From the NCBI RefSeq assembly GCF_001017655.1, contig NZ_CP010904.1:2610001-2642000 (forward strand): a stretch of DNA of 32,000 nt, in the 5' to 3' direction. A program made the position numbers and the translations under genes. Under the pieces are notes generated by a model. It ran no database searches. It saw only the letters and a list, made by a program, of their open reading frames with translations, and was not told the DNA's origin. The stretch is from Kiritimatiella glycovorans. GTDB taxonomy: Bacteria > Verrucomicrobiota > Kiritimatiellia > Kiritimatiellales > Kiritimatiellaceae. Positions 1,001 through 26,405 of the stretch are shown here, piece by piece (position 1 is the first letter of the stretch; each line of letters starts with the position of its first letter).

Positions 1001-1010
1001 TTATCTACGA

Positions 1011-3614: not shown

Positions 3615-3640
3615 TCCTGCGGGGGTGCTCCCCCGCAGGA
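3615..3640 (-). terminator. GC-rich hairpin downstream of the rubredoxin-like gene (possible terminator, no U-tract)
   Basis: 11-bp perfect stem tcctgcggggg/cccccgcagga with a tgct loop, about 20 nt past the stop at 3660. No T-run follows on the minus strand. Confidence 0.3.
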
Positions 3641-3659
3641 CAGGGTCGGCGTCGTCCGG

Positions 3660-3995: not shown

Positions 3996-4144
3996 CTTCG
4001 CATCCCCTTTCGTTTTGATGCCGTACGCTCGATGGGTCGTATTCTAGCAGGATCCCTGACGTTCTCAAGTTAAGTCCGTGTTCATCGGTCGCATTTCGAT
4101 TGCCTTCTTGCACGGAAACGGCGGACGGCCTAGCCTTGGCGACG

Positions 4145-4942
4145 ATGGAACTGCAATCTTTCATAGAGACGATGGAGCGCCTCGCCCCGCCCGAACTCGC
4201 GGAACCGTGGGACCACACCGGGCTGCTGCTGCGGCCTTTATCGCCCCGCGACGTGAGCACCGTACTGCTGACGATCGACCTCACCCGCGAGGTGGCGGAA
4301 GAGGCGGTGGCGAAGGAGGCTCAGGCGGTCGTAAGCTATCACCCCGTCCTGTTCGGCGGAACGCATCGGCTGGACGCGCGCGATCCGCAACTCGCGGCGG
4401 TGATGACGCTGGTGAAACACGAGGTCGCGCTCTACTCGCCGCACACCGCCCTCGACGCCGTCCGCGGCGGCACAAACGACTGGCTGGCCGGGGGGATCGG
4501 GAAAGGCGCGGCCGAGGTCCTGCGGCCCTCGGCGGCGGACCCGGACCACGGCATGGGACGCCGCATAGAGCTGGAATCCGGCACACGACCCGGCGACCTG
4601 GCCGCACGGCTTCGGGACTTCCTGGGTATCGATGCCGTCCACATCGCCTCTCCCTCCGCTAATCCGCTCTGCCGCACGGCCGCGATCTGCGTCGGCGCGG
4701 GTGCGGACGTGCTGCTCGACGCCGACGCGGATGTCCTGATCACCGGTGAGATGAAGCACCACGACCTGCTGGCCGCCACGGGCCGCGGCAAGGCCGTACT
4801 CCTGTGCGGCCACACCGAAACCGAGCGCGGCTACCTCAAAGTCCTCGCGCGTAAGTTGCGGCGCGCCTTCGGCCCCTTGGTTCGCGTACTCCGCTCACGC
4901 CGTGACCGCCCGCCCGGACGGTGGGAGGGGAAAGGGCTGTAG
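4145..4942 (+). CDS. NIF3-family dinuclear metal centre protein (GTP cyclohydrolase 1 type 2 homolog)
   Basis: ORF 4100..4942 trimmed to ATG 4145 ([27 protein letters not shown]...). NIF3/YbgI hallmarks: AxxWDxxGL at the N-terminus, VVSYHP, and ITGEMKHHD...GHTETER near the C-terminus. Confidence 0.85.
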
Positions 4943-5081
4943 GAGATTCCCTGCATCGGCGATACGCAAAAGGGAAACTCCCGCCTCTTCCCCCAACAAC
5001 TCAACAACCCAACAACCCTTCTCCCTAATCTTCCTCCCGCGCGCTTGGCAATCGCGCAAAATCGCTTATGCTGGTCGCTTT

Positions 5082-7640
<2,559 letters not shown>

Positions 7641-7752
7641 GGAGGGAGATGCTGCGAAAATGGAATTCACCATGAAGGGAGGAAGAGCATGAAGCGGATT
7701 CTAATCATGAACACACTTCCGGGTCTTTCGCTCCTCATGGTTTAATATCCGC

Positions 7753-7956
7753 ATGACTCTCCTGCTGAAATGGTGGCGGCTCGCGCTCTGCCCCTGGTTC
7801 GAACTCACACCGCGCGAGCGGAAACTGGTCGCGACGATTCTGGCGCTGGCCCTGCTGGGCCTGCTCGTGCGCGAATTCCGCCACCAGCCCCCACCCCATC
7901 GTCTCCGGAGTCCGGAGTCCGGCGCCACCCCCCATCAACCACCAACAAGCAACTAG
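7753..7956 (+). CDS. Hypothetical small membrane protein
   Basis: 67-aa ORF with one hydrophobic helix (LVATILALALLGLLV) and a Pro-rich tail. It has no SD and no recognisable domain. It is the only non-shadow ORF in the 330-bp leuS-HIT gap. Confidence 0.25.
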   Translation: MTLLLKWWRLALCPWFELTPRERKLVATILALALLGLLVREFRHQPPPHRLRSPESGATPHQPPTSN

Positions 7957-7972
7957 ACCCAGGAGGGCCCTC

Positions 7973-8389
7973 ATGGAAGACTGCATATTCTGCAGGATCG
8001 TACGGAGAGAGATCCCGGCGGAAATCGTCTGGGAGGACGAAGCGCTGCTCGCCTTTATGGACATCGGCCCGATCATCAGGGGACATACACTGGTGATCCC
8101 CAAAGTCCACCACGACCCGATTGAAGATACGCCGGACGAGATCGTCGCCGCGCTGTTCCGGTCGGCCAAGCGCATAGCCGCCGCGCAGCGCGAATCGCTC
8201 GGCGCCGAGGGAATCAACATTATTCAGAACAACGGGCGCTGCTCCGGGCAGGCCGTATTTCATATCCACGTCCATGTGATCCCCCGCTACAGCGATGACG
8301 GGCATCACTGGAACTGGGATGCGAAGAGCTACGGCGATCCCTCCGAGATGGCGGATCTCGCCGATAAGATCCGCGGCGCGCTCGCCTGA
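7973..8389 (+). CDS. HIT-family (histidine triad) nucleotide hydrolase
   Basis: CIFCRI N-terminus and the histidine triad HIHVHVIPR. AGGAGG Shine-Dalgarno lies 7 nt upstream of the ATG. Confidence 0.9.
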   Translation: MEDCIFCRIVRREIPAEIVWEDEALLAFMDIGPIIRGHTLVIPKVHHDPIEDTPDEIVAALFRSAKRIAAAQRESLGAEGINIIQNNGRCSGQAVFHIHVHVIPRYSDDGHHWNWDAKSYGDPSEMADLADKIRGALA

Positions 8390-8601: not shown

Positions 8602-9810
8602 GGTAGGTTGTAAACCCAAATGCCGCATGTAGTGGTCTTGTTTCATTTATGAGATCGTTTTGAGTTCGTTCGTGAAGAGTTCGTGAGGGGTCATGAAGTC
8701 GAGGATCCGGCGCGGGTAGTTATTGATCCATAGCTCGATGTCGCGGATTTTCTGCTTGGTAAAGCGCGCGATATCCCGGCCCTTGGCCACGAACCGTCTG
8801 ATCATCCTGTTGCCGTTCTCGTTCGATCCGCGTTCCCAGGATGAGTATGGGTGGGCGTAGAAGATCTGGGTTCGCTGTTGCTTCGAGAAGGAAGAGGCTT
8901 CTAAGGCTTCGAAGTCCAGGAACTCGCTGCCGTTGTCGACCGTGATGGTCTTGAAAATCTGACGGAAGCAGCGGGAGCCATGTTCACGCTCGAGCCCTCT
9001 GAGAACTTTGAGCACGCTGGCTTGGCTCTTATCAGGCAGCTTGCGAATGATCGTGATCCGATGTCTGCGTTCCACCAGGGTCAATAGGGCGGCATTGGAC
9101 CCGCGCGTGGGGCCGGTCACCAGGTCCATCTCCCAGTGTCCGAACTCCTCGCGCGTCTCGGCTCCTTCGGGACGCTGGTCGATGCTTTTGCCTTTGGAAA
9201 TCCGCTTCGCCAACCGCCGAGCGCCGCGTTTGCGCCGCTTGGCTCGCTTACGCTTCTCCCACAGTGACTCGTTGCTGAGCCCGAAAATGACGCCTTTATC
9301 GATGTAGTTATAGATCGTCTTGGTGCACACCACCTCCTCCAGACCGGCCTGACGCATCCGAAAGGCGACTACATCGGGCGATTCCTTATGTTCCACAATG
9401 CGGCAACGGATGAATTCGGCCAGCGCATAGTTGCGGCCCAGCCTCAGACCGGGCCCCCTTGCGGTGGCGTGGTAATCATGGAGGTCCTGGCCGCGATCGC
9501 TGCTGTAGGTCCGGTATTCCCGCCACTCCGAGTCCCGGTGGGTCACCGTCCCGCGCTTGAGCTCACGCTGGATCGTACGCGGGTGACGCTCCAAGGCGGC
9601 CGCGATGTCCCGTGGGGGGATCCCCCCACGGGACATCCGCTCAATCACCATGCGCTCCACCCTCGTCAAGTGCTTGCCCTTCCTGCTATTCTGATTCTGT
9701 TCCATGCCGTCTCCTTCCTCTGTTGTCCTGTTGTAAGACCACAAAGGATAGCGAACCACGGCATGGAACGCTCTCTCCTATACCTGCGGCATTTCACATT
9801 ACACTTCTCA
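8602..9810 (-). mobile_element. IS30-family insertion sequence (1209 bp) with imperfect terminal inverted repeats
   Basis: Single DDE transposase ORF. The left end ggtaggttgtaaacccaaatgccgcatgta (8602-8631) matches the reverse complement of 9781-9810 (tgagaagtgtaatgtgaaatgccgcaggta) at 19/30 positions, including a perfect aaatgccgca core. It is bounded by the 15-bp direct repeat. Confidence 0.8.
8647..9705 (-). CDS. IS30-family DDE transposase
   Basis: ORF 8647..9759 trimmed to ATG 9705 (MEQNQNSRKGKHLT...), preceded by a GGAAGGAGA SD. It has an N-terminal HTH (RDIAAALERHPRTIQRELKRG) and catalytic-region motifs HWEMDLV, TVDNGSEF and YAHPYSSWERGSNENGNRMIRRF. Confidence 0.93.
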   Translation of the reverse strand: MEQNQNSRKGKHLTRVERMVIERMSRGGIPPRDIAAALERHPRTIQRELKRGTVTHRDSEWREYRTYSSDRGQDLHDYHATARGPGLRLGRNYALAEFIRCRIVEHKESPDVVAFRMRQAGLEEVVCTKTIYNYIDKGVIFGLSNESLWEKRKRAKRRKRGARRLAKRISKGKSIDQRPEGAETREEFGHWEMDLVTGPTRGSNAALLTLVERRHRITIIRKLPDKSQASVLKVLRGLEREHGSRCFRQIFKTITVDNGSEFLDFEALEASSFSKQQRTQIFYAHPYSSWERGSNENGNRMIRRFVAKGRDIARFTKQKIRDIELWINNYPRRILDFMTPHELFTNELKTIS

Positions 9811-10192: not shown

Positions 10193-10756
10193 ATGACAGA
10201 AGAGCCGAGAGAAGAACCGCCGCAGCCTGTTGATGCTGACGATTCGTCTTCCGCAGACGGTGAGAACTTAGAAGATCCTTGCTCCCAAGTTCTTGCACGT
10301 CTCGAGATCGAAGCGCCAGAAATTCTCTCTGGTTTGCCCAAGGAGCAGCGGGTATAGCTGCTTCACATCGTCACATCACATATGGTGATGAAGAGCCATC
10401 GCGGTCCGCTACCACCACCGGAAGATATAGCGCTCTACAATCGGCATATCACGAATGGGGCCGACAGAATTATGTCAATGGCCGAGAAACAGTCAGACCA
10501 TCGACGCAACATGGAACGGATAATTGTAACGAGTCAGACTTCCCAGAGCGGACGCAGCCAGTTGTTCGGCCTTCTCATAGGCCTGTTCGGGATCACTGCC
10601 GGTGCAATTGTTGCCACCATGGGTCACGACTGGGTTGGAGGCGGAATCGCGGGGACAACTGTAGTCAGTCTCGTATATGCTTTCATCACAGGACAACGAT
10701 CTCAGCGCCCGTCAAGCGACAAGTCTCCCTCTCCGCCTTCGTCTTCTCAAAATTAG
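10193..10756 (+). pseudogene. DUF2335-type membrane protein gene interrupted by an in-frame TAG (10355-10357)
   Basis: The downstream ORF 10382..10756 has GPLPPPEDIALYNRHITNGADRIMSMAEKQSDHRRNME plus two TM helices, as I recall for DUF2335. Upstream, ATG 10193 opens the same frame (MTEEPREEPPQPVDADDSSSADGENLEDPCSQVLARLEIEAPEILSGLPKEQRV) and stops at TAG, 8 codons before the downstream ATG. Confidence 0.55.
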
Positions 10757-10887: not shown

Positions 10888-10927
10888 AAAAAAAACGGGC
10901 GGTCCTGCTGTTCAGCAGGACCGCCCG
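10888..10927 (-). terminator. Rho-independent terminator of the pilus-like operon
   Basis: 14-bp perfect GC-rich stem (10896-10909 / 10914-10927, loop gttc) followed on the minus strand by 8 T (A-run 10888-10895). It lies 25 nt downstream of the secretin stop. Confidence 0.85.
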
Positions 10928-10951
10928 CCAGGGCTTCGGGGAGTCTACGAT

Positions 10952-13303
10952 TTACCGCTGCATCGACTTCGTCATCTGCTCAACCGACTGCCGATCCTGG
11001 GTTTTGTACCCGTAGGCGTCGACCCGGTTCGCGGTCACGAAGATGAGCAGGTTCTTCTTTTCGCTCCGCTCACCTTCCGACCGGAAGAAGCGCCCGACGT
11101 AGGGAACATCGCCGAGCAGCGGGACCTTGTCCTCAAAGGAACTGGTGGACTCATTGATCAGTCCGCCCATGACCACCGTGCTTCCGTCGGCGACGGAGAG
11201 CTGCGTGGTGACGGTGCGTTCACGGAATACCGGCATCGTGACCGTGAGCGGATCCGAGTCCTGGAAGGCGGGGTACACGGTGCGGGGTTCGTCCTCGCCG
11301 AGGTACTCACGGATCAGGGGCTCAAGTTCCAGATTAATCGTGTTGCTCTCCGTGTCGACATCGGGACGGACGCGGAGGATATAACCGAGTTCCTTATCCT
11401 CGTAATCCGTAGGCTCGATGTAAGCGAGCGGGATGCCCTGCACGGCGCCTTCGCCGCTGACACTGATCTCTTCGGTATCGAAGTCCATCGGGAACCGGCG
11501 GACGATAACCACCTTGATCGTGGCCTCTTCGCCGCTCTTCGTGGTCACCTTCGGCGCGGATAGCAGGTCGGCGGCGCCGCTCTGCTCCAGCGCGCGAATC
11601 TGGACATCCACCTGCGTCCCGTCGATCTTTGAGATCAGGAAGTCGGAGGTAGCCGTACTGAAGAAATCCTGCACCAGACTGCCGGTCTGGTCCTGATAGG
11701 GGGAATCCTGGGGAAGCTGAGCATTAGGATCGCCGCTGTTGCGAAGACCATCGCTGAAGAGCGGCGTGCCGTCCGTCGGGTCGCCGGGCGTACCGTCGCT
11801 TCCGATCTGGTAGTCTCCGCCGCCGGCGGTAATGACATCATTCAAGGTCCAGTCGAACCCGAGTTCGGAGAGCGCGCCTTCATTGACTTCCACGAACTTG
11901 GCCTCGATTTCCACCTGGGCGGAAAGCTGTTCGCGCGCTTTCTGGGTCAGACGCTCGATCAGCTTTTCGATCATGTCGAGGTTCTGCGGCGTGTTGCGGA
12001 CCGTCAGCGTGTTGAATTTCGGCCTGTACACGGCTGTCGCGCCCTGCGGGAATTCGACCCCGCTGAAGAAACCGGCTACGTCGATCGCGCCGCTGGTGCC
12101 GCCGCCACCGCCGCCACCACCGCCGGTCGTTTCGCCGAACAGCTCGAAGCCGCCACCGCCGCCGCCGCGGCCGCCGCCGGTATCTTCGCCATCACCCGCC
12201 TGGGCTTCCATTTCCTGGCCGATGGCGGGGATGACATCGTACGTGCGCAATTCGAGCTTTTCACGCGCCACGTAGCCGACGGGCGTAATCGTAACCACGT
12301 TCGGATTGACCTCGTACTTCAGGCCCGCCATTTCGGTGATGTACTTGAGGGCATCAAGCACGGAGATATCGCGCAGACTGATCGTGACGGTGATATCCTC
12401 AGCGCCGCCGCTCTGCTGGCCGCCGCCACCGCCGCCGAAACCGAATTCGTCCTCGTCATCTCCGCCACCCTGCTGGGACCGGGCCTTCGCGCTGTCGAGT
12501 CCGAGCAGAATAAAGTTCACGGGCTTGCCCTGCCGCTGACACATATCAGAGAGAAAGTTTACGACGTCCTTGATATTGGCTTCCCGGAAATCCAGTTCGG
12601 GAATGATGATATCTTCGAGCTTCTGTCGGAGCTGCTCGATTTTCTGCGCCTCTTCGGAAACCTTCCCTTCCTCTTCCTCTTCTCTGGGAAGGAGCGCTTC
12701 GCGCAGAGGGGGGTTCCAGGCCTTCTCGACATCGGCGAGCATGTCGGCCCGGGACGCACTGGTCTTGTCTTCGTAGGAGGCATTGCGCCGATCCGCAATT
12801 TTGCGCAGGTATTCGTTAGCTTCCTTATTGTAAGGGTCTTTGGATACGACCGTCTCGAACATGACGCGCGCCTGGTCGAATTTTCCCTTCTTGAAATAGT
12901 CCCGGCCACGGTCGATCATCTGATCGAGTTCATTGACCTCTTTGACCTTCTTTTCCTTTTTGGCGCGCTTTTCGGACTCTTCAGCCTTCTTGCGGGCTTG
13001 CTCGGCCGCTTCCTTTTCTTCGGCTTCCGCCGCAGCGTTCGCTTCCGCTTCGCTCTTCTCAGCCTTCATTGCCGCTTTCTTCTTTTCCGGTGCGGCTTTC
13101 ACTGCGGGGGCCTCAGGCTCGGCCTTCTCGGCCGGCTTTTCGACCTCAAACTTCGCTTCCGGCGCTTTCACTTCTTCTTCGGACGAAGTCTCACCGCCGG
13201 GGAGGTCCTCAAAAATCGACTCCATCGTCTCCTGCGCCGTCACGGCCTGAAATCCCGCAATGGTGATCACACCGACGACTATCATACTCAGTTTTCTGAA
13301 CAT
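10952..13303 (-). CDS. Secretin-family outer-membrane channel (PilQ/GspD-like; Amuc_1098-type)
   Basis: ORF 10952..13399 trimmed to ATG 13303 (MFRKLSMIVVGVITIAGFQAVTAQE signal peptide; AGGAG SD 8 nt upstream). The C-terminal secretin signature is TVVMGGLINE...KVPLLGDVPYVGRFFRSEGERSEKKNLLIFVTANRVD. The N-terminus has a K/E/A-rich stretch and a TPR-like segment. Confidence 0.85.
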   Translation of the reverse strand: MFRKLSMIVVGVITIAGFQAVTAQETMESIFEDLPGGETSSEEEVKAPEAKFEVEKPAEKAEPEAPAVKAAPEKKKAAMKAEKSEAEANAAAEAEEKEAAEQARKKAEESEKRAKKEKKVKEVNELDQMIDRGRDYFKKGKFDQARVMFETVVSKDPYNKEANEYLRKIADRRNASYEDKTSASRADMLADVEKAWNPPLREALLPREEEEEGKVSEEAQKIEQLRQKLEDIIIPELDFREANIKDVVNFLSDMCQRQGKPVNFILLGLDSAKARSQQGGGDDEDEFGFGGGGGGQQSGGAEDITVTISLRDISVLDALKYITEMAGLKYEVNPNVVTITPVGYVAREKLELRTYDVIPAIGQEMEAQAGDGEDTGGGRGGGGGGFELFGETTGGGGGGGGGTSGAIDVAGFFSGVEFPQGATAVYRPKFNTLTVRNTPQNLDMIEKLIERLTQKAREQLSAQVEIEAKFVEVNEGALSELGFDWTLNDVITAGGGDYQIGSDGTPGDPTDGTPLFSDGLRNSGDPNAQLPQDSPYQDQTGSLVQDFFSTATSDFLISKIDGTQVDVQIRALEQSGAADLLSAPKVTTKSGEEATIKVVIVRRFPMDFDTEEISVSGEGAVQGIPLAYIEPTDYEDKELGYILRVRPDVDTESNTINLELEPLIREYLGEDEPRTVYPAFQDSDPLTVTMPVFRERTVTTQLSVADGSTVVMGGLINESTSSFEDKVPLLGDVPYVGRFFRSEGERSEKKNLLIFVTANRVDAYGYKTQDRQSVEQMTKSMQR

Positions 13304-13485
13304 CGCGCTGCTCCTATGTTTTCGTGACAAATTTGTTCGCATCTCAAAAAGGGCGTTATAGGCATCGCTCGTGATTCCCGCAACAGTTTTCCGTTCCATT
13401 TTTATCTCCCTGGTCGACTGTTCTGCACTAGTGACCCTTTTCTTCTACGAACCGCTCCCCGGCCCCCCGCCGGCGAAGCTCTTCC

Positions 13486-14484
13486 CTATTCCCCGGTGAG
13501 CAGACGCCGCCGTTCCGCGTCGGTGAGCTTGGGCACCGTACTCTTGCGCCCGGTCTCCACGGCCTTCACGGTGACTTCTTCGTCCCGGATTTCAACGACT
13601 TCATACTGCTTTTCTTTGAGCGTGAATGTCTCGCCCACGCGCTTCACGAGCTTGCGGCTGTCCACCAGATAGATCATACCCGCCTTGACTTCGAAGGAAC
13701 TGATTTCCTTGCCCTGTTCGAGTGCGATCATCTTTTCGGCCTGTTCGAGGTAGAGCGTACGTTTGTCTTCGTCGTACCGTTTCACCTCGATCCCGGCAAC
13801 GCTCTGCCCGATTTCAACGAAGTGCGTCCGGCCGCCCTCCCGCAGGTTGAGTGCGAATACCCTGCTCCCGTCCGGGATGCGCGTCACAGACTTGAAGAGG
13901 AACTTGAAGGGGGTTTCGATGCGGCGCACCATCCGCAGCTTGGCCACGGGCGGCGGGAAGGAGCTGCTGTCCCGCGGGTCGGTGCCGGCGGTGTATTCCT
14001 CATAATTGGTGAAGCCGTCGTTATCCGCGTCACGCGTCGCGTCGGCGGCCACGGTGGGGTCGAACCCGTTTTCCCGTTCATACATATCCGGCATGCCGTC
14101 GCCATCGATGTCCACTTTTTCGGGATCCTTCAGCGCCGGCTGTTCGGCCCCGGTAAAGGGGCAGACTTCGGCCATATAGGGGATGGGATATCCTGAGCCG
14201 ACCGCGCGGACTCGGGTGCGGCTTGTGAACAGCGGCCGGCCGCTCTCCTTGAATTCCACGTCCCGCGTCATGGTCTCCATGGCGTTCCGGATCCGCTGCT
14301 GGGACACCGCCGCCGCCGCACTGACCTCCGCCGGCGGCGTTTCCCATGCGGCCGCCCGGACCTCCTGCCGGAGGCCGCGGATACGCATGACGCCGTAGAG
14401 CGCGGAAGCGGCCAGGAGTACAATGACGGCCGCGAGGGCCGCTTTTTCATAATGTCGCGCGATCCAGCCGAAGTTCCCTTTCAT
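13486..14484 (-). CDS. PilP-position pilus-like system protein (Amuc_1099-like): N-terminal TM anchor, TSP3-type Ca-binding repeats, two beta-rich modules
   Basis: TM helix AALAAVIVLLAASALYGV. Acidic repeats are DIDGDGMPDMYERENGFDP and DADNDGFTNYEEYTAGTDP. The C-terminal half resembles PilP/GspC-HR-like beta domains. The gene sits between the PilO-like gene and the secretin. Family naming is from memory. Confidence 0.5.
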   Translation of the reverse strand: MKGNFGWIARHYEKAALAAVIVLLAASALYGVMRIRGLRQEVRAAAWETPPAEVSAAAAVSQQRIRNAMETMTRDVEFKESGRPLFTSRTRVRAVGSGYPIPYMAEVCPFTGAEQPALKDPEKVDIDGDGMPDMYERENGFDPTVAADATRDADNDGFTNYEEYTAGTDPRDSSSFPPPVAKLRMVRRIETPFKFLFKSVTRIPDGSRVFALNLREGGRTHFVEIGQSVAGIEVKRYDEDKRTLYLEQAEKMIALEQGKEISSFEVKAGMIYLVDSRKLVKRVGETFTLKEKQYEVVEIRDEEVTVKAVETGRKSTVPKLTDAERRRLLTGE

Positions 14485-14488
14485 GACC

Positions 14489-15475
14489 TCACTCGCTCTC
14501 CTTCAGGGCAATGTTGGACGCAAACCGGTAGACATCCACCACCATAGTGACCGTGATCGTCTCGTCACCGGCGATCTTGCGCGCCTCCCGGCTTGCCTCG
14601 GTTTCGGCCTCGACCGTCTGATCCTGCGAACCCGAATCGCCGCCTTGCCCCTGCTCCGCCTCCTGTTTGGCCGATTCGGGGTCGAAATCGAGAATATCCG
14701 ACTGCGTGTCCGTGTTGACGATCTTTACCACCGAGAAGCGGTCGCTGTGGCTCAAGGCGTGCAGGATGCGCCAGATCGGCGCTTCCTTGGTGTTGAACGA
14801 CATCTGGACGCGCTCCGCGGTAAACAGGTCGTCGGGGTCGACATGGCTGGCCTCGAGCGAGCCCGCTTCGGCGGGCTGGCCCTGATCGCCCCCCCGGCTT
14901 CCGCGCCGGCCTGTCCGCGGCTCCGCCGCCGCGCGGAGCGCCTGTTCGAAAACATCGCGTTTGATGTCGGTGACCTCACGGACTCCCGACACGCAGAGCA
15001 CATGGAACAGCGTCTCCACGGCGTAGAGCTGATTGACGAGGCGGTCGACGTACTTATCCTGGGGAATGGTCCCCTGCACGTAGCGGCTGAACCCGAAACT
15101 GAAATCCTCCGGGACGGCAACGCGTGCGTCCTCGGCCCATCCGACCATCCGCTCACGGGTGCGGCCCAGCAGCGAGGCGAAGGCCACGGGGGCGATATTC
15201 TCGTTGGGCCGCTGCTCGCGCCGCATCAGCTCGATCAGATCAACCATGTGGTCCTGAAGCTGATTTACGTTCTCCTTCATCTGCGCCACGTTCTCTTTGC
15301 TGGGGAACGGGTCCCGGCGATTCAGCTCCCGGAGGCGCTCCTGCTGCTGCTTGAGTTCGCCGCCGACACGCAGAGCCTTTACCTGTTCGCGAACGGTGTA
15401 GACCAGCGTCCCGATGAGGAGCACGGCCAGTATGCCGCCGCCCACGATCAACAGCATGTGTTTGCGCCACTTCAT
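14489..15475 (-). CDS. PilO-position pilus-like protein (Amuc_1100-like): TM anchor, coiled coil, C-terminal alpha/beta domain
   Basis: It has an N-terminal TM helix (MLLIVGGGILAVLLIGTLVY), then coiled coil (KQQQERLRELN...NVNQLQDHMVDLIELM). It shares a 4-nt ATGA overlap with the upstream PilM/N gene and ends 4 nt before the next gene. Size and layout match the Akkermansia Amuc_1100 class as I recall it. Confidence 0.5.
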   Translation of the reverse strand: MKWRKHMLLIVGGGILAVLLIGTLVYTVREQVKALRVGGELKQQQERLRELNRRDPFPSKENVAQMKENVNQLQDHMVDLIELMRREQRPNENIAPVAFASLLGRTRERMVGWAEDARVAVPEDFSFGFSRYVQGTIPQDKYVDRLVNQLYAVETLFHVLCVSGVREVTDIKRDVFEQALRAAAEPRTGRRGSRGGDQGQPAEAGSLEASHVDPDDLFTAERVQMSFNTKEAPIWRILHALSHSDRFSVVKIVNTDTQSDILDFDPESAKQEAEQGQGGDSGSQDQTVEAETEASREARKIAGDETITVTMVVDVYRFASNIALKESE

Positions 15476-17181
15476 AGTTCAAACGGCTCCTTGAAGGCGA
15501 TCTCGATCACGTATTCCTGGGCGAAGGTTCCGGGGAGGGGCTGCTTTACGATTTTTGTGCCCTCGCCGAACGGCTCCATGGCCTTGAGCCGGTTCCAGAA
15601 CTCGGTCACCGAATTTTCGTCGACCTTATCCAGGTAGCCGAAGCCCGATATCCGCACGCCCGTAAGCTGCCGATGGTCCATCAGCCCGCCGCCCCCATTC
15701 TGCGGCTGCGGCATGCCGCGCATGCGGGAGCGTCCCCCGGCCTGCGCCTGCTGTTCCGAGTCGGCGAACATCGACTCCGTCTTAAAGACGTACATGCCCT
15801 CGGGGATCGCCGAGACGAGACGGTTCATTACGTTCATCCAGGTGTCGCGACGGCCCACGAGTCCCAGAAGTCTCGACTGATAGCGCTTGAGGACTTCTGC
15901 CTGTCGCTCCTGCAGTTCGAGTTTCTTTTCGATCTGCTCAAGATGCCGCACGCGATCGCTCACCCCTTCGAGCGCCTGCTGATTGAGGCTGGCGGTCGTG
16001 GAAAAGTAGTAGCCCCAGGCCGCGACCGTGAGCACCAGCAGCGCAAGCGCCGCCACGAGTGCGGGTTCCTTGCGGCGGAACGTCTTTTCGCGCACCAGCC
16101 GCGCCGGCATAAGGTTGATTTCCAGCGGGCAGGGCTGAACCTTACGCAAGGCCAGGCCGACGAGCTCATTCAGCGCGCCCCGGTCGCTTTCGAGCTGCGC
16201 GGAGTCGATGCCGGAATCCACCTCCACCGCCTTGAGGGCGTCGAGGTTTTCGACGGGGACGCCGAGCTTCTGACCCAGGAACTCGGCGAGACCCTCGATA
16301 CGGGCCGTCCCCCCGGCCAGCATGATGCGCTTCGGGGGGTTGCCGTTCTGCTGAGTACGGTAAAAATTGATCGAACGGTTGATTTCCATGTGCAGCCGGT
16401 TGGCCGTATTCTGCACGCACTGCCGGACTTTGGCCGCCTGCTCGTCTCCGGAAGACTCCTGCGTACCGCCCAGCTTTGCGTGGGCAAGCTTGAGCTGTTC
16501 GGCCTCGGCGTTCTCCACTTCGAGTTCGCGCGCGATCTGCTGGGTGATGGTATGGCCCGCGACGGGGACGCTCCGGATAAAGGCGCGATCCGCCTCCATG
16601 AACACGAGATCGGTCGAGCGGGCCCCGATGTCGATCACCAGCGTGCTCTCTTCCGGCAGCCCGTAGTTGTAGCGCGCGGCGTTGTAGAGCGCCATCGGCG
16701 CCACGTCGAGCACGTCGGGATCCAGCCCCGCCTGCTCCACCGCCGAGGAAATGCCCTCGACCATGTCCGCCTTGATGGCGGCCAGCATGACCCGGACGTC
16801 CTCCTCGCCACGCTCGACGAGCTGGTAATCCCAGACTACCTCGTCGATCGGGAAGGGCACATTCTGGACGGCCTCGTACTGGACGATCTGCTGGATCTTG
16901 TCCTGTTCAACCGGCGGGCAGCTTACAAAACGCGAAAAAACCGACTGTCCGGCAACGCTGACCACCGCCGTGCCCGCGGCGATTCTGTGTTCGCTCATCA
17001 GGCTCTTGAGCGTGCGGGTGATCTGCAGTTCGCGGTTCGCCTCTTCCCCGGCTCCGGGATCGATGGGCGCCATGCCGAACCGGTGCAGCCGGATCCCGCC
17101 TTCCCCGCTACGTATAAATTCCGCCAGCTTGACGCTTGCGGCTCCGATGTCCACCGCGAGAATGCGTTTGGATTTCATCAT
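15472..17181 (-). CDS. pilM: PilM-PilN fusion protein (actin-like ATPase fold, then TM and PilN-like periplasmic domain; Amuc_1101-type)
   Basis: N-terminus ILAVDIGAASVKLAEF...QYEAVQNVPFPIDEVVWDYQL...VIDIGARSTDLVF...MLAGGTARIEGLAEFL is PilM/FtsA-like. It is followed by EINLMPARLV, the TM helix ALVAALALLVLTVAAWGYYF, then a coiled coil, which is PilN-like. Confidence 0.85.
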   Translation of the reverse strand: MMKSKRILAVDIGAASVKLAEFIRSGEGGIRLHRFGMAPIDPGAGEEANRELQITRTLKSLMSEHRIAAGTAVVSVAGQSVFSRFVSCPPVEQDKIQQIVQYEAVQNVPFPIDEVVWDYQLVERGEEDVRVMLAAIKADMVEGISSAVEQAGLDPDVLDVAPMALYNAARYNYGLPEESTLVIDIGARSTDLVFMEADRAFIRSVPVAGHTITQQIARELEVENAEAEQLKLAHAKLGGTQESSGDEQAAKVRQCVQNTANRLHMEINRSINFYRTQQNGNPPKRIMLAGGTARIEGLAEFLGQKLGVPVENLDALKAVEVDSGIDSAQLESDRGALNELVGLALRKVQPCPLEINLMPARLVREKTFRRKEPALVAALALLVLTVAAWGYYFSTTASLNQQALEGVSDRVRHLEQIEKKLELQERQAEVLKRYQSRLLGLVGRRDTWMNVMNRLVSAIPEGMYVFKTESMFADSEQQAQAGGRSRMRGMPQPQNGGGGLMDHRQLTGVRISGFGYLDKVDENSVTEFWNRLKAMEPFGEGTKIVKQPLPGTFAQEYVIEIAFKEPFEL

Positions 17182-17206
17182 CCGTCTCGTCCCCGACCGT
17201 TACAGT

Positions 17207-17827
17207 TTACCGCGCCGCCGGCTTGATCTCTTCGTACTGTTCAATGTTGATAAAGGCAAAAGGCGTCTCAAGACGGTTCCGGAGCACCCCTTCACGCACG
17301 GAGAACTGTTCCCACCAGCGGCCCTGACCCTGGCGACTGCTCTCCCCGGCGATCTCACGTCCCTTATAGCTCACAAGCACCGCCCACTCGAGTATATCGC
17401 CGTCGTAGAAACGCCGGAGCGAATTGGGGTGCATGAAGACTTCGCTGAAATGCTCGTCGCCCTGGTAGATGTACACATAATCAATTTTTTTGTGGAACAC
17501 CACGGGCTGCGGGCTCTCCTGCCGGCCTTCCATCTCAGGAGGACGCATCAGCACATAGTAATCGAACGTAAGCTCATCGATCCACTCGGGCATGGTTTCG
17601 TATTCGACCACCATGCGGAACCATGTCTTCCTCGCTTCGTCCCGGATATTCAACCCGGCGGAACTGACGTCGTAATCCGGGGTCTTGGGCGCGGTGTCGG
17701 GGAAAACCTCCACTTCCGCGATTTCAAATCCGACCTCCTGCGCCTCGGCCGCAGTGCTGCTGAAGGACAGAACGAGGGCTGTGACGATTCCCAGGGCCGT
17801 GAGGCTCCTTCCGATAACGATTTTCAT
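17207..17827 (-). CDS. Secreted pilus-cluster protein (Amuc_1102-like), first gene of the operon
   Basis: Signal peptide MKIVIGRSLTALGIVTALVLSFSSTAAEAQE. GAGGAGG SD upstream. The gene ends 25 nt before pilM/N. No known domain is recognisable by eye; assignment is by position only. Confidence 0.4.
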   Translation of the reverse strand: MKIVIGRSLTALGIVTALVLSFSSTAAEAQEVGFEIAEVEVFPDTAPKTPDYDVSSAGLNIRDEARKTWFRMVVEYETMPEWIDELTFDYYVLMRPPEMEGRQESPQPVVFHKKIDYVYIYQGDEHFSEVFMHPNSLRRFYDGDILEWAVLVSYKGREIAGESSRQGQGRWWEQFSVREGVLRNRLETPFAFINIEQYEEIKPAAR

Positions 17828-17884
17828 TTTGCGCCCTCCTCAGGTTGTCCCGAAACGCGAATAGAAGCAGTTCAAGGATGGGCG

Positions 17885-17913
17885 AATCTATGCTCACCTG
17901 CGCAACCTGTCAA
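17885..17913 (-). promoter_or_regulatory. Candidate sigma70-type promoter of the pilus-like operon
   Basis: The minus strand reads TTGACA (17913-17908), a 17-nt spacer, then TAGATT (17890-17885). It lies about 55 nt upstream of ATG 17827, in the 110-bp gap after bioC. Confidence 0.4.
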
Positions 17914-17937: not shown

Positions 17938-18714
17938 TTAAACCATCCCTGTATCAAAAAAACCGACCCGGTAGGTCGCCGGCAGACCCGCCGGTCCGGC
18001 GTGTCTGTGCCGATATATTTCTTTCAGCTTCCTCAGCTCGCCGCGGGTCAGTCCGCGCCGTCTTGCGGAGGGCGATCCGGTGACGCCCCGCTCGTGAAGG
18101 TCACGGAGGAGATCTTCCGCGCAGGGGTAGTACACGGTGCGGGTTTCAGTCTTTACGCGATCGGCGTTCATGCCGGCCTCCGCAAGGGCCCGGCCGACCC
18201 CGCCCTCGGAGGGCAGGCTCACGGGGGGCTCCACGCCGGGCGCCGCCGCACACCGCGCCGCGGAGAGCTCCTCGAGCGTACCCTCGAGCATGAGCGCGAA
18301 GGTGACGCGGGCTCCGTCCTCCAGGCATGCCGCGAGGGCGCGGAACAGCGCGGCGAGATCGGGAATCCAGTGGAGCGCCGAACTGCTGACCGCGCGGCTG
18401 AAGGGCCCTTCCGGAAGAGAGACCCGCATGTCGCGAACTTCGGTCGTAAGCTTCGGACCGCCCGCCGTCTTGGCCCGGCATACGTCGATCATGGCCGCGG
18501 AGGCATCGATGGCGTGAACGGCGGGCCGCGGGTTCAGAGCACAGAGCTGACGCGTAAGCAGTCCGGTCCCGCACCCCAGCTCCAGCACGCGGTCGGCCTC
18601 TTCAGGCAGCTCCATCCAGCGCACCAGTTCGCGCGCGACCTCCGCCTGCACGGCGGCGCCCGATTCATACGCGGCCGCGGCGGCGGAGAATCTTCTGCTC
18701 ACGTTTCCGCTCAT
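17938..18714 (-). CDS. bioC: Malonyl-[ACP] O-methyltransferase
   Basis: ORF 17938..18852 trimmed to ATG 18714 (MSGNVSRRFSAAAAAYESGAAVQAEVAREL...). Motif I is VLELGCGTGLLT. It has SSSALHWIPDL and a typical BioC tail (PATYRVGFF). ATGA overlap with the bioF-bioH stop. Confidence 0.8.
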   Translation of the reverse strand: MSGNVSRRFSAAAAAYESGAAVQAEVARELVRWMELPEEADRVLELGCGTGLLTRQLCALNPRPAVHAIDASAAMIDVCRAKTAGGPKLTTEVRDMRVSLPEGPFSRAVSSSALHWIPDLAALFRALAACLEDGARVTFALMLEGTLEELSAARCAAAPGVEPPVSLPSEGGVGRALAEAGMNADRVKTETRTVYYPCAEDLLRDLHERGVTGSPSARRRGLTRGELRKLKEIYRHRHAGPAGLPATYRVGFFDTGMV

Positions 18715-20639
18715 AAGGCGATCCTGCGGCTCAGCTCGTCCACACAGTAGAGGGGCAGGGCGTGACCTTCCCCCTGCATCTCTTCGAGTCGCGCCGCCGG
18801 AAGCTCGGCCTCGAGCCGCCGCGCGGCTGCGACGGGCACGATGCCGTCGCACGATCCATGCAGCAGATGCACCCGGCCGCGCACCCCGGCGAGGAGGGGG
18901 AGGATATCAAAAGACTGAAGGAACCGGAGCCCGGCGGACAGAACTTCGACCCCCGCACTCAACACCTTTTCGATCCGGACCTCCGCACCCTCCGCGGCGC
19001 GCGGCGCGGCGGAGCGGCGGTAGAATTCACGCAGCACCGGCTCGGGGTCACTCCGAAGCATACGCTGCATCGTCCGGACCTCGGCAGACGCAACGCCGCA
19101 GGGCCAGCCGCGCCCCGAACAGAAGCGGGGCGTCACGCCGCAGAGCACGAGCCCGCCCGCGGGGCCATCTTCACGCACCGCCCTTTCGAGAAGCAGCATG
19201 GCACCCAGCGACCAGCCGGCATGCCGCTCGAACGGACCCTGCTCCGCGATCAGCGACTCAAGGCCGTCGACGAAAGGCTGTTCCGACTTCCCGCCCCCGC
19301 CCCGGCCCCACAGGTCCTCCGGCCCGGAGAGTACCACCTCATGACCGGTGTCGCGCAGAGCCTTTGCCAGGGGGTCAAGTTCCGCCGCCGGATAACCCCA
19401 CCCGGACAGGAGGAGAATGCGGCGTGCGGAGTCGGAGGGCATGACGGTCCGACCCCGCTCCCGGTCCGGATTTGAATCCTGCCTCATCGTCTCCCCCAAC
19501 ACCGCCGCCGCGCGCCGGAGGTCGTCCTCCTGATGGGCGAGGGTGAGCGAGAAGCGGAGGCGCGCGGTGCCCTCCGGCACGGTGGGCGGACGGATGGCCG
19601 GAACGAGGATCGCCTTTTTCTCCAGAGCGGCGGAAAGGCCGACCGCCGCCCGGTCCTCGCCGACGATCACGGGAACGATCTGGCTTTCGGAATCCTTCAC
19701 CGCCACCCCCTGCGCGCGGAGCGCGGCGCGGAACAGATCCGCACGACGGAGCAGTTCCGGCCCCGGCGCGGGGTCCGCTTCGACCACGTCCAGCGCGCCG
19801 AGCGCGGCGCCCATGGCGGCGGGCGGCGGGGCGGTGCTGTAGATGAATGAACGCGAGCCGTTCACCAACCACTCGCGCAGCTTCGCGTCGCACGCCGCGA
19901 ATCCGCCGCAGCTCGCGAGCGCCTTGCTGAGCGTACCCATGTCCACGGTAACCGCATCCGCCCCGTTCTGATCCGCCAGGCGGCCGCGGCCGCGTTCACC
20001 GAATACGCCCGACGCGTGGGCCTCGTCGACCAGCAGCATGGCCCCGTGAGCATGGGCGAGGCCTGCGAGTTCCTCCAGCGGGGCGAGATCGCCGTCCATG
20101 CTGAACACGGATTCGGTGACGACCAGGATGCGGCGGGTCTTCCCCGGCAGTGATTTCAGGCGGCGCTCGAGGTCCTGCGGATCGTTGTGACGGAACCGGA
20201 TGAGCCGGGCGCGGCTGAGCACGGCGGCGTCGAGCAGGCTGGCGTGGGCGAGCCGGTCGGCGAGCACCACATCGCCCCGTCCCGCGAGCCGGGGAAGGAT
20301 CCCCGCGTTGGCCGCATAACCGCTCCCGAAGACCAGCGCGGCCTCGCGCCCCTTCCAGGCCGCGATCCGGTGCTCCAGGGTTTCATGCGGCGGGAGCGTG
20401 CCGCAGACCAGCCGCGAGGCCGTGGCCCCCGCCCCGTACTGTTCCAGGGCCTCCCGTGCCGCGGCGATCACGCGGGGGTTGCGGGCCAGGTCGAGGTAGT
20501 CGTTCGAGGAGAAATTGAGCGTCTCGCGTCCGTCCAGCTCCAGTTTCCCGCCCGCGGCGGGAAACACGCGCGTTCGCCGGAGGCGGCCACCGGTCCGCAG
20601 CCGTTCCAGGCCGGATTCGATCCAGTCCATGGAGGTCAC
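18711..20639 (-). CDS. bioF: Fusion protein: 8-amino-7-oxononanoate synthase (BioF) with a BioH-like alpha/beta-hydrolase (pimeloyl-ACP methyl ester esterase-like) C-terminal domain
   Basis: Residues ~1-390 are BioF: NFSSNDYLDLA, SGYAANAG, ESVFSMDGD, VDEAHASGVFG, and the PLP lysine context TLSKALASCGG. Residues ~400-642 have RILLLSGWGY, the nucleophile elbow HAGWSLGA, and LLHGSCDGIVP...GEGHALPL. No stop separates the halves. The start is GTG 20639 or ATG 20630. Confidence 0.85.
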   Translation of the reverse strand: MTSMDWIESGLERLRTGGRLRRTRVFPAAGGKLELDGRETLNFSSNDYLDLARNPRVIAAAREALEQYGAGATASRLVCGTLPPHETLEHRIAAWKGREAALVFGSGYAANAGILPRLAGRGDVVLADRLAHASLLDAAVLSRARLIRFRHNDPQDLERRLKSLPGKTRRILVVTESVFSMDGDLAPLEELAGLAHAHGAMLLVDEAHASGVFGERGRGRLADQNGADAVTVDMGTLSKALASCGGFAACDAKLREWLVNGSRSFIYSTAPPPAAMGAALGALDVVEADPAPGPELLRRADLFRAALRAQGVAVKDSESQIVPVIVGEDRAAVGLSAALEKKAILVPAIRPPTVPEGTARLRFSLTLAHQEDDLRRAAAVLGETMRQDSNPDRERGRTVMPSDSARRILLLSGWGYPAAELDPLAKALRDTGHEVVLSGPEDLWGRGGGGKSEQPFVDGLESLIAEQGPFERHAGWSLGAMLLLERAVREDGPAGGLVLCGVTPRFCSGRGWPCGVASAEVRTMQRMLRSDPEPVLREFYRRSAAPRAAEGAEVRIEKVLSAGVEVLSAGLRFLQSFDILPLLAGVRGRVHLLHGSCDGIVPVAAARRLEAELPAARLEEMQGEGHALPLYCVDELSRRIAL

Positions 20640-21424
20640 GGGCGCAGACCCTCCCGGAGCGCGGCCAGCGCGGCGCCGGGATCGGGCTGCCGCAGGAGGT
20701 GCTCGCCGACCAGGACGCCGGCGACATCGGCCTCCCGGAGTGTACGGATATCCTGCGCGGACCGGATTCCGCTCTCGCTGACGACCAGCGCATTATCCGG
20801 CAGCCCCGGCCGCAGCCGGAGCGTGGTTTCGATGCGGGTCTCGAAGGTGCGCAGATCGCGGTTATTGATCCCGATCCAGCGCGCGCCGCTGTCGACCGCG
20901 GCGGCGGCCTCCTCCGCGGAGTGGATCTCGACCAGCGGCTCGAGTCCGCACGCCCGGCAGCGCTCCGCCATCCCGTTCAGTTCATCGGGCTCCAGCACGG
21001 CGGCGATCAGCAGCACGGCGGAGGCGCCCGACATGCGCGCGTGATACACCTGCCAGTCCTCGACCACGAATTCCTTGTAGAGCATGGGGAGGCGCGTGGA
21101 CTTGCGCGCCGCCTCGAAATCGTCCTCGCCCCCGCCGAAGTAGCGGTAGTCCATGAGGCAGGATACGGCCTGCGCGCCGCGGTCTTCGTACGCGCGCGCG
21201 AGGGCGGCCGGATCGAAGTCCGCACGGATCACGCCTGCGGAGGGCGAGCGGCGTTTGATCTCGGCGATAAACCCGAACCCTTCGGCGCAGAGCGAAGCGG
21301 TCCAGTCCGGCGCGGGCGCATCCGCGGCCCCGGCCTGCTCGCGCATCGTCTCCGCGGGGACGTGTTCGCGCAGCTCCGCGATCTCGCGCCGTTTATGCGC
21401 TACGATCTCCTCGAGAATGTTCAC
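20636..21424 (-). CDS. trpC: Indole-3-glycerol phosphate synthase
   Basis: ORF 20636..21715 trimmed to GTG 21424 ((M)NILEEIVAHKRREI...), which forms a GTGA overlap with the prfB stop. TrpC motifs: IAEIKRRSPSAG, LYKEFVVEDWQVYHAR, LVEIHSAEE, IGINNRDLRTFE and VSESGI. The upstream part of the track ORF lies inside prfB and is an artefact. Confidence 0.9.
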   Translation of the reverse strand: MNILEEIVAHKRREIAELREHVPAETMREQAGAADAPAPDWTASLCAEGFGFIAEIKRRSPSAGVIRADFDPAALARAYEDRGAQAVSCLMDYRYFGGGEDDFEAARKSTRLPMLYKEFVVEDWQVYHARMSGASAVLLIAAVLEPDELNGMAERCRACGLEPLVEIHSAEEAAAAVDSGARWIGINNRDLRTFETRIETTLRLRPGLPDNALVVSESGIRSAQDIRTLREADVAGVLVGEHLLRQPDPGAALAALREGLRP

Positions 21425-22542
21425 GCCGATTCCTGCTGTTTCTTTTTCAGGTACGCCTCGATGAACTCGTCGAGGTCGCCGTCGAGCACGCCCTGGACAT
21501 TCCCCACCTGCACGTGGGTCCGGTGGTCCTTGACCATCGTGTAGGGCTGCATGACGTAGGAGCGGATCTGGTGGCCCCAGGCGATTTCGCCCTTCTGGCC
21601 GTAGAGCTTCTCGATGTCCTTGCGCTTCTGGTCCTCCTCCATCTCGTAGAGTTTGGCCTTCAGCATCTTCATCGCGACGGCGCGGTTCTTGTGCTGCGAC
21701 CGTTCCGCCTGGCACTGGACGACCGTGCCGGTGGGTTCGTGGACGATCCGCACGGCGGAGTCGGTGGTGTTCACATGCTGGCCGCCGGCTCCGCTCGAGC
21801 GGTAGGTGTCCACGCGGAGATCCTTGTCCTCGATCTCCACGTCAATGTCCTCGTCAAACTCCGGCATCACGTCGAGCGCGGCGAAGGAGGTGTGCCGGCG
21901 TCCGGCGCTGTCGAACGGGCTGATCCGGACCAGCCGGTGGCAGCCGCGCTCGGCCTTGAGGTAACCGTAGGCGTAGGGTCCCTCGACCAGCAGGGTCGCG
22001 CCCTTGAGACCCGCCTCGTCGCCCGGCTGGTAGTGCAGGGTCTGGACCTTGTAGTCGTGGCGCTCGAAATAGCGCATGTACATCCGGCAGAGCATGTCGG
22101 CCCAGTCGCAGGATTCCGTGCCGCCCGCTCCGGCGTGGATGCTGACGTAGGCGTTCTTCGAATCCATCGGACCGCTCAGCAGCGACTGCAGTTCGAGCTT
22201 GCGGAACGAGGTTTCCAGTTCGTGCAGCAGCCGTTCGGCGTCGGCCAATGCCGTATGGCGCTCTTCGCCCTCGTCCTCGCCTTCGGCCAGCTCGAGCATG
22301 ACATCGACATCCTCCAGCTTCTGCGCGAGGGCGTCGCAGGGCTCGATTACGCTGCGCAGGCTCTTGGAGTGGGCGATGCGTTTCTGCGCGCGGTCCGGGT
22401 CGTCCCAGAACCCCGGCTGTGCGGCCTCGTCTTCGACGGAGGCCAGTTCCTTCCGTTTCTCCTCGAGTCCGAGGTAGCCCTGCATCTCTTCAAGCCGCGC
22501 CCGGAACGCGTCGGCGTGCTGTCTGAGTTCGTCCAGTTCCAT
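21421..22542 (-). CDS. prfB: Peptide chain release factor 2, encoded in a single uninterrupted frame
   Basis: It has the SPF tripeptide (RISPFDSAGRRHTSFA) and GGQ (SGAGGQHVNTTDSAVRI). It is 373 aa from ATG 22542, with an AGGGAG SD upstream. The usual frameshift region reads EMQGYLGLEEKRKEL with no internal TGA. Confidence 0.95.
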   Translation of the reverse strand: MELDELRQHADAFRARLEEMQGYLGLEEKRKELASVEDEAAQPGFWDDPDRAQKRIAHSKSLRSVIEPCDALAQKLEDVDVMLELAEGEDEGEERHTALADAERLLHELETSFRKLELQSLLSGPMDSKNAYVSIHAGAGGTESCDWADMLCRMYMRYFERHDYKVQTLHYQPGDEAGLKGATLLVEGPYAYGYLKAERGCHRLVRISPFDSAGRRHTSFAALDVMPEFDEDIDVEIEDKDLRVDTYRSSGAGGQHVNTTDSAVRIVHEPTGTVVQCQAERSQHKNRAVAMKMLKAKLYEMEEDQKRKDIEKLYGQKGEIAWGHQIRSYVMQPYTMVKDHRTHVQVGNVQGVLDGDLDEFIEAYLKKKQQESA

Positions 22543-24354: not shown

Positions 24355-24463
24355 CGTCCTGCTCCGCTGTTGGCTTTTCATGATCCGTCTGCGCTGAACG
24401 CCGTCCGCGCCATGGTGAAAACTTTTCATGTCCTTCCCTCCCTCATGTAGAGCCTCCCGCATC

Positions 24464-25135: not shown

Positions 25136-25154
25136 CGTGTCTTGCTCCCCGCTG

Positions 25155-25568: not shown

Positions 25569-25584
25569 GAGCAGTCCTCCCGAT

Positions 25585-26403: not shown

Positions 26404-26405
26404 CT

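Follow-up and report, generated by a model that had tools for sequence, protein, structure and literature searches.

We report here on five neighbouring genes in a 32 kb stretch of the Kiritimatiella glycovorans genome (32,000 nucleotides of contig NZ_CP010904.1, positions 2,610,001 to 2,642,000), which we call the window and whose own numbering we use throughout. We believe this cluster is very probably the K. glycovorans counterpart of the Akkermansia locus Amuc_1102-1098, also known as MUL2: an operon for the alignment scaffold of a type IV filament and its outer-membrane pore. Five co-directional open reading frames (ORFs) run along the minus strand from 17827 to 10952, and we number them g1 to g5 in reading order. 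The initial annotation had listed five minus-strand genes at these coordinates and had likened them to the Akkermansia locus. All five are present, and the top NCBIfam match of each is the corresponding Amuc family, in the Akkermansia gene order. The five proteins are 100% identical to NCBI proteins of K. glycovorans, a member of the phylum Kiritimatiellota in the PVC group (NCBI taxonomy).

Top matches were taken from NCBIfam with its curated cutoffs, and Pfam, PDB-sequence, family-profile and Foldseek searches were run besides. The profile searches of NCBIfam and Pfam found the five Amuc families as well as PilM_2 and Secretin. A lack of similarity in g1, g3 and g4, whether to the Amuc families or to PilO and PilP, had been named as the result that would tell against the identification; their Amuc matches have E values of 7e-17, 9e-32 and 8e-29. 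Comparison with solved structures agrees, since g1 matches the Amuc_1102 crystal structure 7dsz (E 1e-8) and the family profile of g3 matches the Amuc_1100 structures 6kny, 6lad and 6laf (E 1e-16). The predicted topologies of all five proteins also correspond to those first described. Amuc_1102 and Amuc_1099 are the two families whose curated cutoff is passed. The products of g2, g3 and g5 fall under theirs and are therefore divergent relatives, homologs rather than strict equivalogs.

A fusion of PilM and PilN

The gene g2 reads from 17181 to 15472 on the minus strand and encodes 569 amino acids, with its stop codon at 15472-15474. It is a genuine PilM-PilN fusion, joined via the conserved PilN N-terminal motif EINLMP. 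This had been proposed in the initial annotation, and it is borne out by separate matches for the two halves. A family profile of 55 sequences matches Myxococcus PilM (3jc8) with E 2e-59 over positions 1-349, and it separately matches PilN (3jc8_N) with E 2.4e-9 over positions 355-480.

The N-terminal part (residues 1-348; 16138-17181, minus strand) is the cytoplasmic actin-like PilM domain. The top NCBIfam match of g2 is Amuc_1101 (E 1.6e-145, 486 bits against a cutoff of 650), and it passes the cutoff of TIGR01175, pilM, with 206.5 bits against 133. It also matches PF11104 (PilM_2) with E 2e-45, and its similarity to the GspL family is weak (E 5e-4, 19.2 bits against a cutoff of 65). An AlphaFold2 model (predicted local distance difference test score, pLDDT, 86.7) has the actin-like domain at 1-348. 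Foldseek matches this model to the PilM structures 2ych, 5eou and 3jc8 with E values down to 4.5e-31; for 2ych the template modelling (TM) score is 0.88 and the root-mean-square deviation 2.6 A.

The C-terminal part (residues 351-569; 15475-16131, minus strand) is a PilN-like module by the profile match to 3jc8_N and by the model, in which a long helix (360-457) is followed by a ferredoxin-like beta-alpha-beta domain (463-568). The single transmembrane helix predicted for the protein, at 375-393, lies inside the long helix. The linker between the two parts carries the conserved sequence CPLEINLMP, in which C351, P352, L357 and P359 are invariant in the family alignment and EINLMP occupies 353-359. 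By the titles of the PDB entries, this sequence corresponds to the PilN N-terminal peptide that was co-crystallised with PilM in 2ych and 5eou. NCBI calls the protein identical to g2 'type IV pilus assembly protein PilM'.

The proteins in the PilO and PilP positions

The initial annotation described the next two products as PilO-like and PilP-like. Their architecture fits that description, but neither has a significant match to PilO or PilP, so the likeness is one of position and build while the sequence families are Amuc families.

The gene g3 (14489-15475, minus strand, 328 amino acids) overlaps the stop of g2 by 4 nt. Its product is an Amuc_1100-family protein, predicted to be bitopic in the inner membrane with an N-terminal transmembrane helix at 7-25. 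The top NCBIfam match, NF038287 (Amuc_1100), is a full-length one (E 9e-32), although at 110.7 bits it stays under the cutoff of 180. The single sequence has no relevant match among PDB sequences; a profile of 58 family members matches 6kny, 6lad and 6laf over nearly their full length. The family is large, with 1052 representatives at E <=1e-3 among 1.84 billion clusters, the closest of them 40% identical. T2SSM_b gives a weak match in 8 of the 58 relatives. The position, length and transmembrane anchor of g3 fit PilO, and we regard it as PilO- or GspM-like by architecture, with similarity that is weak or below threshold. The Akkermansia literature calls the Amuc_1100 fold PilO/PilN-like, and the NCBI name of the protein identical to g3 is 'Amuc_1100 family pilus-like protein'.

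The product of g4 (13486-14484, minus strand, 332 amino acids) belongs to the Amuc_1099 family; it is anchored in the membrane and has Ca-binding repeats as well as two beta domains. Its top NCBIfam match is NF042425 (Amuc_1099), at 101.2 bits against a cutoff of 50 (E 8e-29), and its identical NCBI protein is named 'Amuc_1099 family pilus-like system protein'. Topology prediction gives an N-terminal transmembrane helix at 15-33 and no lipobox. Two predicted Ca-binding TSP3-type repeats follow at about 123-171 (Pfam TSP3_bac, E 7e-8), and the AlphaFold2 model (pLDDT 84.3) has beta domains at 183-256 and 265-319. One of these resembles the HR domain of GspC (3oss_C) in Foldseek, with probability 1.00, a target TM score of 0.77 and 3.3 A, but at an E value of 0.12, so that we take the likeness as weak and suggestive. 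Full-length g4 gave no Foldseek match with E below 1e-3, its single sequence found nothing relevant in PDB, and its family profile found no solved homolog beyond the Ca-binding loops. We suggest that g4 may work like PilP; it is not a member of the PilP family.

Most Amuc_1099-family relatives share a zinc-ribbon-like four-cysteine motif, CxxC...CPFC, aligned with g4 residues of about 91-112, and 26 of 59 relatives match UPF0547/DZR. K. glycovorans g4 keeps just C108 of the four cysteines.

The exported protein and the secretin

The first gene of the cluster, g1 (17207-17827, minus strand), encodes a secreted or periplasmic protein of 206 amino acids. It is an Amuc_1102-family protein with a predicted Sec signal peptide, and hence a putative Sec-exported one. 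The NCBIfam match to NF042424 (Amuc_1102) reaches 61.7 bits where the cutoff is 55 (E 7e-17), and the match to 7dsz came from the PDB sequence search. WP_052882679.1, identical to g1, is named 'Amuc_1102 family pilus-like protein' by NCBI.

The last gene, g5 (10952-13303, minus strand, 783 amino acids), encodes, judging by its sequence, an Amuc_1098-type secretin. The mechanical ORF extends to 13399. We chose the ATG at 13303, which has a taGGAG ribosome-binding site and gives the protein a predicted N-terminal signal peptide; the 783-residue product is NCBI WP_052882675.1, and the longer form has no NCBI record. After a Lys/Glu/Ala-rich, TPR-like, low-complexity N-terminal region come Gly-rich linkers and a C-terminal secretin domain. 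The top NCBIfam match is NF042912 (Amuc_1098), for which the E value is 1.5e-112 and the 377 bits do not reach the cutoff of 750; the match to PF00263 Secretin (E 7e-35) is above its cutoff. Matches to the GspD, PilQ and MshL families range from E 1e-42 to 1e-33. GspD (E 4.9e-42, 144 bits against a cutoff of 351) and PilQ (TIGR02515, E 1.4e-40, 139.6 bits against 284) are about equally near. Secretins in PDB match with E 2e-18 and weaker, and no AMIN domain was detected with Pfam. NCBI lists g5 as 'hypothetical protein' and UniRef as 'Type II and III secretion system protein'.

Transcription of the cluster

The five genes probably form one operon, and a single transcript can be inferred from their spacing and from the terminators. 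With g5 starting at 13303, the gaps between successive genes are 25, -4, 4 and 182 nt, the same values that had been given before. The cluster ends in a strong intrinsic terminator at 10888-10929 (minus strand), identified by folding and by a repeat search, with a GC-rich stem of 16 bp, a 4-nt loop and a U8 tail. Its perfect 15-nt arms lie at 10896-10910 and 10913-10927. The predicted free energy is -38.1 kcal/mol (z-score -5.5), and none of 200 shuffled sequences folds as well, so the terminator first noted at this place is real. Another terminator-like hairpin (17978-17955), also with a T-run, ends the upstream bioF-bioC genes, so that the cluster is bracketed at either end. Inside it we found no strong minus-strand terminator, no tRNA and no Rfam element.

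The promoter is a weaker case. The proposed sigma-70-like candidate, TTGACA-17-TAGATT at 17885-17913 (minus strand), lies 57 nt before the start codon of g1 and was found by the consensus scan with 10 of 12 consensus matches. Its significance is weak, however: the 9 kb region has four such sites where 1.7 are expected, and we therefore treat the candidate as suggestive.

A different arrangement would have two transcription units, g1 to g4 from the upstream promoter and the secretin gene from a promoter of its own in the g4-g5 spacer (13304-13485, minus strand). At 182 nt this is the sole long gap of the cluster by the ORF coordinates, far longer than the others and than the median of 42.5 nt for the same gap in relatives. 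Yet the spacer has no promoter-like or terminator-like site on the minus strand, Rfam scans of the spacer and of the whole window gave nothing above threshold, and the sole strong terminator comes after g5. We regard two units as doubtful, and a single operon of five genes as the better account.

Conservation and linkage in relatives

A scan of species-representative genomes found g2 relatives in large number, at least 478, of which the best is only 45% identical. We compared the loci of the best 80 of these, and counted gene order in the 47 that are adequately flanked. All five genes stand in the same order in 44 of the 47, from Kiritimatiellia, Lentisphaeria and Verrucomicrobia, with short or overlapping median gaps (8.5, 3, -4 and 42.5 nt). 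By record label, the best 80 loci comprise 19 from Kiritimatiellia, 11 from Lentisphaeria/Victivallales, 26 from metagenome-assembled genomes labelled Verrucomicrobia, 4 from Chthoniobacterales, 1 each from Spartobacteria and Opitutia, and 18 from the PVC group or unclassified. The Akkermansia locus has been reported as syntenic in Akkermansiaceae and other Verrucomicrobiales, more weakly in Chthoniobacterales, and as absent in Methylacidiphilales (PMC13174399, 2026). In Kiritimatiellia and Lentisphaeria, a free-living hypersaline anaerobe included, the full module is conserved just as well. It follows that the family is older than the association with the gut, and host signalling by Amuc_1100 is probably a secondary role.

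Some of these loci carry further machine genes. In locus L059 (3333-9200) two T2SSE genes of 568 and 570 amino acids enclose a PilT-like T2SSE gene of 366 amino acids and are followed by a T2SSF gene of 431 amino acids, and this pilB-pilT-pilB-pilC set shares the strand of the module and runs straight into its Amuc_1102-like gene. Locus L064 has T2SSE and T2SSF genes (358-3300) 6-9 kb upstream of the module. Runs of genes with prepilin motifs lie upstream in L018 (two genes, about 700-5982), L022 (five, 10-8096) and L024 (six, 410-8169). All three loci also have an upstream gene from a conserved family of 730-810 amino acids, which in L024 is shown to run directly into the Amuc_1102-like gene; the L018 member, the sole one read, has a GspK-like N-terminus and no Pfam match. 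About 70 of the 80 loci have no pilin, T2SSE or T2SSF gene within 10 kb. Contiguity with pilB-pilT-pilB-pilC or with pilin clusters in some relatives ties the module to a complete, possibly retractile, type IV filament machine.

How the module would work, and what weighs against it

We propose the following arrangement. The PilM domain of g2 would sit beneath the inner membrane, and the PilN-like part of g2 would pair with g3 within it. Through its GspC/PilP-type beta domain, g4 would bridge these two to the periplasmic N-domains of the secretin ring formed by g5, which would be the outer-membrane pore, and g1 would be an exported accessory in the periplasm or at the surface. The motor ATPases, the platform protein, the prepilin peptidase and the pilins would be encoded elsewhere in the genome and would build the filament through this scaffold.

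Several points weigh against our reading and should be faced together. Three of the five products, those of g2, g3 and g5, do not reach their curated equivalog cutoffs in NCBIfam. The g3 family profile reaches just E 0.067 with PilO (3jc8_O), which is not significant, none of 59 g4 relatives has a PilP or GspC match in Pfam, and the structural match of g4 to the GspC HR domain has the E value of 0.12 given above. PilN/PilO paralogy was tried and rejected, since hhalign of the g3 family with the PilN half of the g2 profile gave an insignificant 11% probability. The 182-nt gap before g5 could hide an internal promoter. Finally, the physiological role taken up below would be extrapolated from a gut specialist to an anaerobe of hypersaline mats.

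The main rival is a different function for the same parts. The module could act as the core (GspL-GspM-GspC-GspD) of a type II secretion system (T2SS), in which a short pseudopilus exports folded glycoside hydrolases and sulfatases and no extended pilus is made. Several features would favour this. GspL has the layout of g2, a cytoplasmic actin-like domain, a transmembrane helix and a periplasmic ferredoxin-like domain, and the weak GspL match of g2 and the weak T2SSM_b matches among g3 relatives point in the same direction. Like GspC, g4 is membrane-anchored and is no PilP-type lipoprotein, and its sole recognisable structural match is to the GspC HR domain. The secretin scores as well with GspD as with PilQ, and the large gene that follows the upstream pilin clusters has the GspK-like N-terminus read in L018. 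Spring et al. list a T2SS for K. glycovorans, more than half of whose glycoside hydrolases have signal peptides (PMC5148204).

Against this, g2 scores 206 bits with PilM, above the cutoff, and 19 with GspL, and its C-terminal part matches PilN. The ATPase set of L059 includes the 366-residue PilT-like retraction ATPase, and we know of no T2SS that has one. The Akkermansia locus, moreover, has been tied to mucin acquisition and pili-like structures, not to secretion. We consider a T2SS function unlikely, and continue with the type IV filament scaffold as the preferred reading.

Missing partners and the question of autonomy

The initial annotation found no PilB/PilT ATPase, PilC platform or pilin gene near the cluster, and this holds for the entire window: there is no T2SSE ATPase, T2SSF platform or pilin gene in the 32 kb, and a six-frame scan of the window found no prepilin motif. 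The other genes of the window are unrelated to pili: ahcY, an ArsR-methyltransferase, NIF3, leuS, the IS30 element, a DUF2335 gene, bioC, bioF, trpC, a release factor, and a cluster of TonB, ExbB and a TonB-dependent receptor. It is a further step from here to the claim that the module is autonomous or self-contained. That is true of the gene arrangement, but it does not follow for the machine, since in relatives the module is linked to pilB-pilT-pilB-pilC or to pilins. The absence from 32 kb does not imply autonomy because of these links (L059, L064, L018, L022 and L024), because a T2SS has been reported in the K. glycovorans genome by Spring et al. (PMC5148204), and for a third reason taken up below. 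Some other Kiritimatiellales genome papers do not mention pili or a T2SS.

A truly autonomous envelope complex or surface structure, with Amuc_1100- and Amuc_1102-like proteins as its exposed units and with neither pilins nor ATPase nor platform, would accord with the empty window, with the roughly 70 of 80 loci that are likewise empty within 10 kb, and with the immunolocalisation of Amuc_1100 at the Akkermansia cell surface (PMC5332112), but we think it very improbable. The module directly adjoins the pilB-pilT-pilB-pilC set of L059 and the pilin clusters of L018, L022 and L024, and the anchor of g3 is an N-terminal transmembrane helix of the PilO type, not an outer-membrane signature. Classical pilMNOPQ operons, for example in Pseudomonas aeruginosa, are also unlinked to pilABCD, which is the third reason why absence from the window does not imply autonomy. 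To our knowledge PilM, PilN and secretin modules occur solely as parts of type IV filament machines.

Possible function

Published work treats the Akkermansia cluster as one for type IV pili, whose membrane proteins are highly abundant (PMC5332112; PMC10688800). MUL2 is reported to be important for mucin acquisition in Akkermansia (PMC13174399). The initial annotation called the function of the locus poorly defined, and since the Akkermansia locus is MUL2 and has been linked to mucin acquisition, it is no longer functionally blank. Mucin use and TLR2 signalling are not relevant here, because K. glycovorans is a free-living halophile of a different phylum. By analogy, the machine may help this saccharolytic anaerobe to capture or acquire extracellular glycans, a suggestion we offer tentatively.

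One can go further and see the module as a distinct, PVC-wide branch of the type IV filament superfamily whose ancestral job would have been to capture and import polysaccharides with a retractile filament and a secretin. Its components would be the PilM-PilN fusion, connectors of the Amuc_1100 and Amuc_1099 types, an exported protein of the Amuc_1102 type and an N-terminally extended secretin. We hold this to be rather improbable. If it were true, it would explain glycan uptake by polysaccharide-degrading Verrucomicrobiota and Kiritimatiellota such as K. glycovorans, and the host effects of Amuc_1100 would be incidental. Genes for TonB-dependent polysaccharide uptake of the Bacteroidetes type were not detected in K. 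glycovorans (PMC5148204). If a role in glycan uptake generalises, the module would be a candidate for the route, so far unexplained, by which PVC bacteria take up polysaccharides.

Neighbouring features of the window

Downstream of the secretin, relatives usually have genes for a 5'-3' exonuclease, CoaE and Rho. In the same place K. glycovorans has the terminator, a small DUF2335 membrane protein gene (10382-10756, plus strand) and, about 1.1 kb beyond the terminator, a complete IS30-family element (8609-9803), and local synteny is broken here because the element sits where the relatives have those three genes. Its transposase ORF (8647-9759, minus strand) has HTH_38 and rve domains, and its imperfect inverted repeats of 23 nt lie at 8609-8631 and 9781-9803. 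A perfect 34-bp palindrome with 17-nt arms and no spacer (GATGTCCCGTGGGGGGA/TCCCCCCACGGGACATC) occupies 9604-9637 within the transposase ORF. We rejected the idea that the element mobilised the cluster: it is a single insertion sequence that lies beyond the terminator, and throughout the group the cluster has been vertically conserved.

On the other side, a bioF-like ORF (18711-20639, minus strand, 642 amino acids) overlaps at its 3' end a bioC-like methyltransferase ORF (17938-18852). Its aminotransferase domain covers residues 40-380. The C-terminal extension of about 240 residues has no Pfam match and contains GWSLG, a G-x-S-x-G motif, which suggests a fusion of BioF to a BioH-like hydrolase. 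The mechanical ORFs of trpC and a peptide chain release factor (20636-22542, minus strand) overlap by about 300 nt. The IGPS domain of the trpC ORF begins only at residue 101, and the gene itself probably starts well downstream of 21715. Farther along lies a TonB-system cluster (22996-31998, minus strand) with a TPR protein, a protein with a TonB C-terminal domain, a DUF3450 protein, two paralogs of MotA/ExbB, both with long extensions at the N-terminus (390 and 479 amino acids), and a TonB-dependent receptor that runs past the end of the window.

Comparison with known systems

The closest comparison is with Akkermansia. Amuc_1102-1098 consists of the same five families, identical in order and orientation, and g1 and g3 are homologous to the solved structures of Amuc_1102 and Amuc_1100. 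In Akkermansia, too, the pilin and ATPase genes lie elsewhere, and pili genes such as Amuc_1523-24, 1583, 0394 and 0745 are dispersed. The differences lie in divergence and setting. The K. glycovorans proteins are very divergent, with g2, g3 and g5 under the equivalog cutoffs, and the C-terminal 90 or so residues of g2 and the beta domains of g4 lie outside the aligned part of the Akkermansia-based profiles. K. glycovorans is also a free-living halophilic anaerobe, placed in a different phylum from Akkermansia (NCBI taxonomy). The locus was already known, in that RefSeq names g1, g3 and g4 as Amuc_110x-family proteins and g2 as PilM.

The type IVa PilMNOPQ systems of P. aeruginosa, Myxococcus xanthus and Thermus thermophilus have the same functional order, M-N-O-P-Q. 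The PilM fold, the motif, transmembrane helix and core of PilN, and the secretin are shared, as is an operon that stands apart from the pilin and ATPase genes (as in P. aeruginosa). In K. glycovorans, by contrast, PilM and PilN are fused in one chain, and the PilO and PilP positions are held by Amuc_1100 and Amuc_1099 proteins whose sequences do not match PilO or PilP significantly. The protein in the PilP position is anchored by a transmembrane helix and has Ca-binding TSP3 repeats, whereas classical PilP is a lipoprotein. There is an extra first gene, of the Amuc_1102 family, with no PilMNOPQ counterpart, and g5 falls under the PilQ cutoff (139.6 against 284 bits).

The T2SS offers the third comparison. 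The single chain of GspL, with its actin-like domain, transmembrane helix and periplasmic domain, resembles g2; g4 is an anchored connector with a beta domain like the HR domain of GspC, and g5 is as GspD-like as it is PilQ-like. Unlike in a T2SS, the GspL, GspD and T2SSM matches all lie far below the family thresholds, no gspE-K genes are adjacent, and the relative at L059 links the module to a PilT-like ATPase. With the PilP position held by a transmembrane, Ca-binding protein that has a GspC-like domain, the cluster has a mixed character between type IV pilus and T2SS. What we add to prior knowledge is modest: the conservation of the module in Kiritimatiellia and Lentisphaeria, its direct linkage to pilB, pilT, pilC and pilin genes in some relatives, and this mixed architecture.

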